From IMG/VR virus record IMGVR_UViG_2531839664_000024: a stretch of 27,973 nucleotides of DNA. The stretch is one strand, 5' to 3'. The DNA comes from a virus (Duplodnaviria > Heunggongvirae > Uroviricota > Caudoviricetes). Position numbers and translations under genes: made by a program. The notes beneath the pieces were generated by a model. That model did no database searches. It was not told where the DNA came from and saw nothing but the letters and a program-made list of their open reading frames with translations. Below, one piece after another: positions 21,901 through 23,606 of the stretch. The first letter of the stretch is position 1. Every line of letters starts with the position of its first letter.

Positions 21901-22252
21901 CGTTAAAGCTGTATCCAAATCATTCCCGAAACAGGCTGGTACGTGGGGTAACACGGAAACACCAAACGGGACGGTTACAGTCACCATCAGCGATGATCAT
22001 AACTTTGACCGTCAAATCATTATTCCGCCCATTATCTTTAACGGAATAGCGTATAGCGATCCGGGAAGTGGTAATAACCCGGGAGGTACAAGATACACGG
22101 GTTATGGTTTTGAAGTTCGCAAAAACGGTGTATTAATCGCATCCAGAGAAACTAAAGGGGCCATTCCCGGTAGCTACAGTGCGGTTATTGATATGCCGGG
22201 TGGCAGGGGAAGCGTCACTCTGGAGTTTAAGGTTTTTGTAGTGGCACACTAA
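18911..22252 (+). CDS. J: Tail tip/host-specificity protein J, 3' end interrupted by an IS insertion at 22237; the last 5 codons (VVAH-stop) are IS-derived
   Basis: 1113-aa ORF with lambda gpJ-like sequence; the reading frame runs into the IS left inverted repeat. Confidence 0.9.
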
Positions 22253-22308
22253 ATTTGGCCACCTGATGAAAGGTGATATTCTCACCACAACACAAAACAG
22301 GTGACTTA

Positions 22309-22620
22309 ATGAACAAGAAAACCAAACGAACCTTCACCCCTGAGTTCAGGCTGGAATGTGCACAGCTGATTGTTGATAAGGGCTACTCATATCGACAGGC
22401 CAGTGAAGCGATGAATGTCGGTTCAACCACGCTTGAGAGCTGGGTACGCCAGCTCAGGCGAGAGCGCCAGGGTATTACGCCCTCTGCCACACCCATTACT
22501 CCAGACCAGCAACGTATCCGCGAGCTGGAAAAGCAAGTTCGCCGTCTGGAGGAACAAAATACGATATTAAAAAAGGCTACCGCGCTCTTAATGTCCGACT
22601 CGCTGAACGGTTCACGATAG
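22309..22620 (+). CDS. IS3-family transposase OrfA
   Basis: ATG at 22309 ([22 protein letters not shown]...); HTH plus leucine-zipper-like C-terminus. Confidence 0.85.
22569..22575 (+). other. Canonical IS3-family -1 frameshift heptamer A AAA AAG
   Basis: AAAAAAG read directly, in register with orfA codons AAA AAG (..ILKK..). Confidence 0.8.
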
Positions 22621-23486
22621 CCGCCAGACTAAGTGACAGCCACACGGTTGTCAGCCTGTGTTCTGCTCTGGAAATACACCGCAGCAGTTACCGGTACTGG
22701 CGAAAACGACGCGATACGGTTAATCCGGCACGAGTCAGGTTGTGCAGCGAAATACGCCGGGCGTGGAACCAAAGTCGGGGCTCTGCGGGCGCGCGCACTC
22801 TGGCTGAAATGCTGACTCAAAACGGCGTCCCGATGAGCCGTTACCGTGCCGGACGTCTGATGAAATATCTGAACCTGAGCAGTTGTCAGCCCGGAAAACA
22901 TCAGTATAAAAATGCCCGTCAGGAGCATACCAGCCTGCCGAATCTGCTTGAGCGTCAGTTCGCAGTACCGGAGCCAGACCGGGTATGGTGTGGAGATATT
23001 ACGTATCTCTGGGCAGGAAATCGCTGGTGCTATCTGGCGGTTGTTATGGATCTTTTTGCCCGCAGGGTTATCGGCTGGAGTCTGTCAGCGCATGCCGATA
23101 CCGCACTGATAAGCAGTGCCCTGCGGATGGCCTATGAGACGCGTGGCCAACCCCGGGATGTCGTGTTCCATAGCGACCAGGGAAGCCAGTATACAGGCCT
23201 TAAATATCAACAACTTCTCTGGCGTTGCAGAATAAATCAAAGCGTCAGTCGGCGGGGAAACTGCTGGGATAACAGCCCCATGGAACGCTTCTTCCGCAGT
23301 CTGAAAACAGAATGGGTGCCAACGAATGGTTACGCAGGCAAGGACGAGGCCCGGCAGCAAATTAATGATTACATATTGAACTACTACAACAGCGTCAGAC
23401 CTCACCATTATAACGGTGGGCTGACGCCGGAAGAGTCAGAGAACAGATACCATTTTTACTGTAAAACCGTGGCCAATATTACTTGA
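22572..23486 (+). CDS. IS3-family transposase OrfB (DDE domain), expressed as an OrfAB fusion by -1 frameshift
   Basis: Frame open from the slippery site to the stop at 23486 with no internal stops; DDE hallmarks (WCGDITY...HSDQGSQY...DNSPMER). Confidence 0.85.
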
Positions 23487-23497
23487 CCACTACATTT

Positions 23498-23585
23498 CCA
23501 GAAAGGCAATCAGTGGGCAGGTAATATCACCGACTGTACGGTGATTGTGACCAAAAAAGCCGCTTCCGGCATCAGTATTCGTTGA
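23498..23585 (+). pseudogene. J: Displaced 3' remnant of J (about 28 codons, ...QKGNQWAGNITDCTVIVTKKAASGISIR-stop) downstream of the IS
   Basis: Removing the IS and one TTT copy restores a continuous J frame ending at TGA 23583-23585. Confidence 0.6.
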
Positions 23586-23606
23586 AATTGTTATAACCCA
23601 TATAAG

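Follow-up and report, generated by a model that had tools for sequence, protein, structure and literature searches.

A single IS3-family insertion interrupts the tail tip gene J of a defective lambda-like prophage in Escherichia coli O121

The window, by which we mean the whole 27,973-nt stretch of viral DNA analysed, most probably contains a single insertion sequence (IS) within the J gene of a defective lambda-like O121 prophage, as one of several decay lesions, a reading to which we assign a probability of about 95%. We propose that J was hit a single time, at codon 1109/1110, by an intact and widespread element of the IS3 family (most likely ISCfr6), the target being a lambda-like prophage at argU (tRNA-Arg)/intD in a strain ancestral to those O121 STEC that have been sequenced. 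The insertion duplicated 3 bp (TTT) of the target and ended the J frame after four foreign residues; the 28 terminal codons, which make up about the final quarter of the Ig-like receptor-binding domain, were left stranded 1.26 kb farther downstream, where they have no ATG. The comparisons described below demonstrate the structure, the boundaries, the duplication, the restoration of J, the empty sites and the presence of the junction only in O121. The disruption of J is itself already known and ordinary: RefSeq annotates a J pseudogene and a transposase, and the IS copy number has been published.

Boundaries of the element and the empty site

Positions 22237..23494 (1258 bp, plus strand) are occupied by the IS3-family element, for which ISCfr6 or one of its close isoforms is the most likely identity. 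A repeat finder paired the left terminal inverted repeat (IRL, 22237..22262, plus strand), which starts with TG, with the right terminal inverted repeat (IRR, 23469..23494, plus strand), which ends in CA, over 26 nt with 77% complementarity. The two repeats are imperfect, with 20 of 26 positions matching, and their 8-nt tips, TGTAGTGG and CCACTACA, are perfect. The length and the imperfect 5'-TG...CA-3' repeats are those of the IS3 family, whose elements measure ~1.2-1.55 kb. The sequence and a comparison with an empty site place the two TTT copies of the target duplication at 22234..22236 on the left and 23495..23497 on the right, in keeping with the 3-4 bp duplications of the family. In the window letters read over 22100..23700, the left junction is ...AAGGTTTT/TGTAGTGGCACAC... 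and the right junction is ...TTGACCACTACA/TTTCCAGAAAGG..., the slash marking the boundary. The initial annotation had described a 1258-bp IS3-family element bounded by inverted repeats with TTT on both sides, and it had placed the element correctly.

The same terminal bases are found in four other 100%-identical copies of the IS that are set in unrelated flanks: within a head-tail joining gene in E2863 (L010), within melB in strain 503829 (L011), in O145 strain RM9872 (L012), and within the J gene of another prophage in CP53 (L013). Because these four copies end at the same bases, the boundaries of the element are independently confirmed. Three of the four have 3-bp duplications (TAT, GCT and CTT), and among the four copies examined the target duplication was absent only at the one in E2863; a copy on the plasmid pP10159-4 has the duplication CATT. 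A short flank match in CP53 had suggested that this J site was hit independently a second time; the suggestion was rejected, as the match represents a different site in the opposite orientation.

The 1056-nt restored sequence gave a single ungapped match to uninterrupted loci, the best at 99.1% identity, and at least 80% of it is covered in 1984 E. coli genomes. Among the matches listed, all are annotated as gpJ, host specificity or tail tip protein and are followed by an Ail/Lom gene. In strain NCTC86 the empty site is GGTTTTCC; it has four T where the window has four plus three, which means that the duplication comprises exactly 3 bp and that no sequence went missing. NCTC86 has an intact gpJ of 1137 aa that is 98% identical to the restored J over the last 199 aa. 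A duplication is present and the empty allele consists of flank, one TTT copy and flank, as in simple transposition, and the element would have moved by copy-out/paste-in through a circular intermediate, the usual route for the IS3 family. The earlier description of a simple insertion is upheld by the 3-bp duplication and by the colinearity of the empty-site alleles with the restored sequence. Its contrast with the first IS of the window also holds, that element (2290..3599, 1310 bp, IS629-type ends) being preceded by TTC and followed by GTC, with no target duplication.

Within the J coding sequence, 14-30 bases downstream of the right end of the IS, lies AGTGGGCAGGTAATAT (23512..23527), which matches the terminal repeat of the IS in inverted orientation at 14 of 16 positions. 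As a single post-hoc observation, this score was reached in 1 of 1500 shuffles of the 100-nt flank, and no end-like sequences were found near the IS at the three other insertion sites searched.

Coding content and family assignment

The element has two overlapping ORFs, in phase 0 and phase -1. The ORF list and Pfam identify orfA (22309..22620, plus strand) as a 103-aa ORF with an HTH_Tnp_1 domain and with AGGTGA ahead of it. The slippery heptamer A-AAA-AAG for programmed -1 frameshifting is found at 22569..22575 (plus strand) in the orfA register, and the orfB part of the OrfAB transposase, with the rve DDE domain, extends over 22575..23486 (plus strand) according to codon layout, Pfam and NCBIfam. 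The -1 shift gives an OrfAB fusion of 392 aa with its stop at 23486, inside IRR. This fusion scores 360.6 bits against the NCBIfam model NF033516 (IS3 family transposase), for which the cutoff is 160, and Pfam detects HTH_Tnp_1, HTH_21 and rve (rve, 5.3e-27). The catalytic triad is D230/D290/E326, with 35 residues between D290 and E326 and a Lys seven positions past the Glu. Both the ORF arrangement with its A-AAA-AAG site and the rve core with DD(35)E spacing and the Lys are features that define the IS3 family, and RefSeq labels the same CDS 'IS3 family transposase, programmed frameshift'. A stimulatory RNA fold 3' of the slippery heptamer had no statistical support (z = -0.57). The assignment to the IS3 family given in the initial annotation is borne out by the NF033516 score, the HTH_Tnp_1 and rve domains, the frameshift site and the DDE triad, and by its sequence the 1258-bp element looks intact.

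Abundance and name of the element

Copies of the 1258-bp IS with at least 99% identity are found in 938 E. coli records and 309 plasmid records, and the 100%-identical sequence is present in many E. coli chromosomes and plasmids, with hundreds of copies. A match over an identical 1258 bp in this many replicons is far beyond chance; multiple copies at 100% identity show recent activity of the IS, and nothing more. No full-length copy was found in the phage collection searched. In each of the nine O121 genomes that contain the J junction, there are six matching places for the IS.

The element was named by surrogate, with the pP10159-4 element and the copy number standing in for an ISfinder reference, where the bar is at least 95% nucleotide identity. 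An element termed 'ISCfr6:ISEc21' was reported on the Citrobacter plasmid pP10159-4 (PMC6140695). On this plasmid there is just one IS3-family element, which an IS110-family gene interrupts, and the rejoined element is 1258 bp and 96.9% identical at the nucleotide level to the window IS (39-40 substitutions). Six ISCfr6 copies are known from O121:H19 strain 51104 (PMC9397093), and both L1 strains have 6 chromosomal and 0 plasmid copies of ISCfr6, a count unique to ISCfr6 among the IS3-family elements of Table S4 (PMC8767318). For ISCfr6, an IS3-family element first reported on the Citrobacter freundii plasmid, the likeness of the window IS lies in the length of and identity to the pP10159-4 element and in the 6/0 count, and the window IS differs from the plasmid copy by the substitutions mentioned. 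From this sequence comparison, the name of the element is most likely ISCfr6 or a close isoform, and it may instead be the related ISEc92 or ISEc93.

IS911, the best-studied model of the IS3 family, is ~1.25 kb long, has TG...CA ends with a TGGCCAC motif in its repeats, undergoes -1 frameshifting between orfA and orfB at A-AAA-AAG, generates 3-bp duplications and has its transposase stop codon inside IRR. The OrfAB protein of IS911 in the absence of OrfA is drawn to sequences resembling its own ends. The window IS is like IS911 in architecture. IS911 is a different element, and its OrfA and repeat sequences are probably no more than related to those of the window IS.

The interrupted J gene and its restoration

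The interrupted J ORF (tail tip attachment/host specificity) occupies 18911..22252 on the plus strand and encodes 1109 native residues followed by VVAH and a TAA stop. The residues are native through V1108, and codon 1109 is a TT/T hybrid across the junction in which the native Phe is kept; the four residues VVAH and the TAA come from the left end of the IS. The initial annotation had J fused to five IS-encoded codons, which has to be corrected to four residues and a stop. Against the lambda_TipJ model NF049904, the interrupted J scores 2265 bits (cutoff 1950), and the Pfam domains occur in the order FNIII-A_GpJ, Phage-tail_3, Ig_J, Ig_J_second, Phage_Tail_Tip and Ig_GpJ_C. Family model and domain order (hub, FNIII, Ig, Ig, tail-tip fibre, receptor-binding) identify a lambda-type J. 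The match to Ig_GpJ_C, the receptor-binding domain, covers positions 1-102 of 135 in the interrupted protein versus 1-134 of 135 in the restored one (C-terminal 199 residues). No complete receptor-binding domain remains in one frame and the gene is a J-family pseudogene; RefSeq describes it as a gpJ pseudogene that is missing its C-terminus and adjoins an IS3-family transposase.

The displaced last 28 codons of J (QKGNQWAGNITDCTVIVTKKAASGISIR), with their TGA, lie at 23499..23585 (plus strand) and are presumably untranslated because they have no ATG start codon. That about 28 codons had been split off, ending at 23585, was recognized earlier; the start then given for the tail, 23498, is one base ahead of the first whole codon at 23499. 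In each of the nine genomes, RefSeq wrongly labels the stranded tail (23496..23585) as a fragment of a 'homoprotocatechuate 2,3-dioxygenase'. Compared with the intact NCTC86 gpJ, 27 of the 28 tail residues are identical, with a Q/H difference at the first.

We performed the in silico deletion that had been suggested as a check. Removal of 22237..23497, which is the IS and one TTT, produces a J ORF of 1137 codons that matches lambda gpJ to the C-terminal end: the two are 89% identical, and the alignment reaches residue 1136 of 1137 in the restored J and 1131 of 1132 in lambda, with the C-termini aligned as TDCTVIVTKKAASGISI and SDVQVMVIKKQALGISV. Divergence from lambda gpJ is concentrated in the last ~170 residues. 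The window gene is thus like that of lambda gpJ (1132 aa) in overall identity, domain order and neighbours, a tail assembly gene preceding it and lom and stf following, and it differs in being interrupted and in its diverged receptor-binding end, which is nearer to the 'A8 gpJ' structure, solved with OmpC. Because the last ~170 residues are nearer to A8 gpJ than to lambda J, the receptor of this J type is probably not LamB.

Downstream of the J stop, a terminator-like hairpin followed by a T run is found at 23604..23627 (plus strand), ahead of lom (23655..24254, plus strand), which encodes an Ail/Lom family outer membrane protein and is the usual downstream neighbour of J. No sigma-70-like promoter was detected in 22100..23800, and accordingly nothing indicates that expression of lom or of the stranded tail is driven by the IS.

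Predicted consequence of the truncation

The IS ends translation of J early and cuts the receptor-binding domain so that about its final quarter is detached from the rest of J. The lost segment is the best conserved part of the J alleles aligned and holds the only invariant run in the aligned group of J alleles, K-A-S-G-I-S, which is also conserved in lambda (KKQALGISV). In lambda J, the Ig-like C-terminal domain inserts loops into LamB (PMC11101478). Since the lost residues include the invariant run that lambda shares, it is reasonable to expect, as the initial annotation did, that the truncated J would fail to bind its receptor or to make a functional tip. AlphaFold modelling of P0001, an intact homologue with 99% identity, started from a shallow alignment and reached a poor mean pLDDT of 51.9, and a Foldseek search with this model ranked solved J receptor-binding structures first, at a TM score of ~0.55. 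The model does no more than suggest that a core beta-strand is among the 28 residues lost. Q and the late-promoter region are missing from the prophage, a context that the initial annotation had overlooked, and for this reason J is probably not transcribed from its native late promoter; with J probably silent already, the IS insertion would add little to the defects of the prophage.

Host prophage and distribution of the junction

A 300-nt probe across the left IS/J junction was compared with 5426 complete E. coli genomes. It was fully covered in only nine, all at 100% identity: RM8352, 2014C-4423, 2014C-3599, 2014C-3655, 2015C-3107, 16-9255, FWSEC0006, 2002-3211 and GTVSS-020. These are STEC genomes, O121 or O121:H19 wherever a serotype is given, among them isolates from humans, flour and creek sediment. 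Between the window and RM8352 there are 3 differences in 27,973 bases. In RM8352, as annotated by RefSeq, tRNA-Arg and intD are followed by a few small genes and an IS3-family element, with nu1 coming directly next, and then by terminase, head and tail genes, the interrupted J, lom, a tail fibre gene with a frameshift, and tfa; for this argU/intD prophage the RefSeq annotation has no genes for a repressor, replication, Q or lysis. The argU prophage is common to all L1 and L3 O121:H19 strains analysed previously (PMC8767318).

Only these nine O121 genomes contain the junction between the IS629-type element and nu1 in one piece. Both lesions, the IS in J and the IS629/nu1 junction, are therefore present in 9 of 9 complete O121 genomes with the prophage remnant. 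The lack of a duplication at the IS629-type element is consistent with loss of the entire early and late-regulatory region in a deletion associated with that IS. The prophage at argU (tRNA-Arg)/intD is a defective remnant, in which early, regulatory and lysis genes are missing and the side tail fibre gene is frameshifted.

Discussion

The insertion could be thought of as the scar of an IS-mediated rearrangement, through recombination between two copies or an adjacent deletion, in which case the two J pieces would not originally have been contiguous. The other IS of the window does abut a large deletion and has no target duplication, and the IS copy in E2863 is also without one. However, the duplication is present at J, removal of the IS and one TTT leaves a gapless alignment to uninterrupted gpJ-lom loci, and the restored ORF is exactly the intact length of 1137 aa; we consider this origin exceedingly improbable and, from the sequence comparisons, already refuted by the colinear empty-site alleles. 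Insertion sequences are also a classic cause of misassembly, and the junction might be ascribed to an assembly artefact of a repeated element, but the identical junction in nine independently sequenced complete genomes and the proper target duplication already refute this explanation and leave it a practically negligible probability.

With a single simple insertion as the preferred reading, there are further possibilities as to what it means for J. A protein of 1109 residues plus VVAH keeps 98% of J, with every hub, FNIII, shaft and fibre domain present and the receptor-binding domain retained to three quarters, and it would still be a working tail tip if the lost 28 residues were dispensable for folding and receptor binding. 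We judge this very unlikely, as the lost part has the only invariant run, conserved in lambda, corresponds to Pfam positions 103-135 of the receptor-binding domain and includes the last long beta-strand in the low-confidence model, and as it is the Ig-like C-terminal domain of lambda that inserts loops into LamB (PMC11101478). It is also conceivable that J reverts precisely, because O121:H19 carries an IS-excision enhancer (IEE) that promotes excision of IS3-family elements (PMC9397093). In O121:H19, lactose use is restored when IEE promotes the excision of IS600, also of the IS3 family, from lacZ, ISCfr6 copies were noted in the same strain (PMC9397093), and the IS at J and both of its ends are intact; the insertion might then be a reversible switch, with a restored J serving recombinant or helper-dependent lambdoid phages. 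Such a switch is very unlikely, however, since the IS is kept at 100% identity in 9 of 9 complete O121 genomes, with reversion seen in none of the nine, the regulatory, replication and lysis genes are missing, a restored J would be without its native late promoter, and there is no sign of selection for reversibility. Also unlikely, in our analysis, is that this J allele would be a natural 'surrogate end' hot spot which, in combination with IEE excision, would make J an on/off locus and not a dead gene, the point of insertion then being other than random; this would hang on ISCfr6 sharing the end-targeting of IS911 as well as on IEE-promoted excision.

A single simple insertion into a decaying prophage is the reading that we retain, and no observation speaks against it. 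The J lesion would have little present-day consequence, as the immunity, replication, Q/late-promoter and lysis genes were also or already lost and the side tail fibre gene is frameshifted. There is no difference of substance from the IS-disrupted genes of other defective STEC lambdoid prophages, e.g., those with IS629 in O157, and the window is another instance: an IS3-family element has hit a structural gene, in a genome that is rich in IS3-family copies and carries IEE (PMC9397093, PMC8767318). The stranded tail exposes the mislabelling of a J fragment as a dioxygenase in RefSeq. The junction is lineage-specific and is usable as a PCR or typing marker for the O121:H19 clone. The IS insertion in J puts on record one of the several lesions to which the argU prophage of O121:H19 STEC owes its defective state, and it illustrates the erosion of STEC prophage structural genes by IS3-family elements, which is already well described.

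Identical copies and target sites of the IS

The 1258-bp IS3-family element that interrupts J at 22237..23494, most likely ISCfr6, has identical copies at other sites. In strain CP53 (NZ_CP033096.1, 5007..6264), the copy also lies within J of a different prophage, but at a different site from that of the window insertion, approximately 294 codons from the end of J, in the opposite orientation, and with CTT as the target duplication. The copy in strain E2863 (NZ_AP018802.1, 301..1558) is found within a head-tail joining gene and lacks a target duplication, with TCT on one side and GCC on the other, which points to a secondary rearrangement there. 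The ISCfr6-type element of the Citrobacter plasmid pP10159-4 (11090..13721) is flanked by a 4-bp duplication, CATT. It carries an IS110-family insert of 1.37 kb close to the codon of the second catalytic Asp, in agreement with the published ISEc21 target (PMC11187229).

Beside the window insertion, the J coding sequence contains AGTGGGCAGGTAATAT (23512..23527), which begins 18 nt past the IS end and agrees at 14 of 16 positions with the terminal repeat of the IS, in inverted orientation with respect to the right terminal repeat (23469..23494). When the 100-nt flank was shuffled, this score was reached in only one of 1500 shuffles. A comparable terminal-repeat-like match was sought at three other insertion sites of the IS and none was found. 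The match may be a signal for target choice or may have arisen by chance.

Other lesions of the prophage

A separate IS of 1310 bp with IS629-type ends, TGAACCGCCCCGGG..., is located at 2290..3599 and directly adjoins nu1. It has no target duplication, the flanks being TTC and GTC. The prophage lacks immunity, replication, Q and lysis genes, which fits an IS-associated deletion. The junction with nu1 is present only in the same nine complete O121 genomes that share the J::IS junction. A third lesion affects the side tail fibre gene 3' of lom (24319..27389), which is broken up into a pair of ORFs that overlap (24319..25722 and 25683..27389) and is flagged "frameshifted" by RefSeq.

The stranded J tail and the receptor-binding domain

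In each of the nine O121 genomes, RefSeq/PGAP treats the last 28 codons of J, stranded at 23496..23585, as a pseudogene and names it [quoted passage not shown]. Judged from the sequence, which corresponds to the gpJ C-terminus, the name is an annotation error that has been propagated. In sequence, the receptor-binding domain encoded by this J allele (21900..22236 plus 23499..23585) resembles A8 gpJ more closely than lambda J, both by phmmer (E-values of 6.5e-56 and 1.4e-46, respectively) and by sequence identity in Foldseek (47% versus 40%). Since the solved structure of A8 gpJ (PDB 9wca/9wcb) shows it bound to OmpC from E. coli EDL933, the receptor recognized by this J allele before its disruption was probably not LamB.
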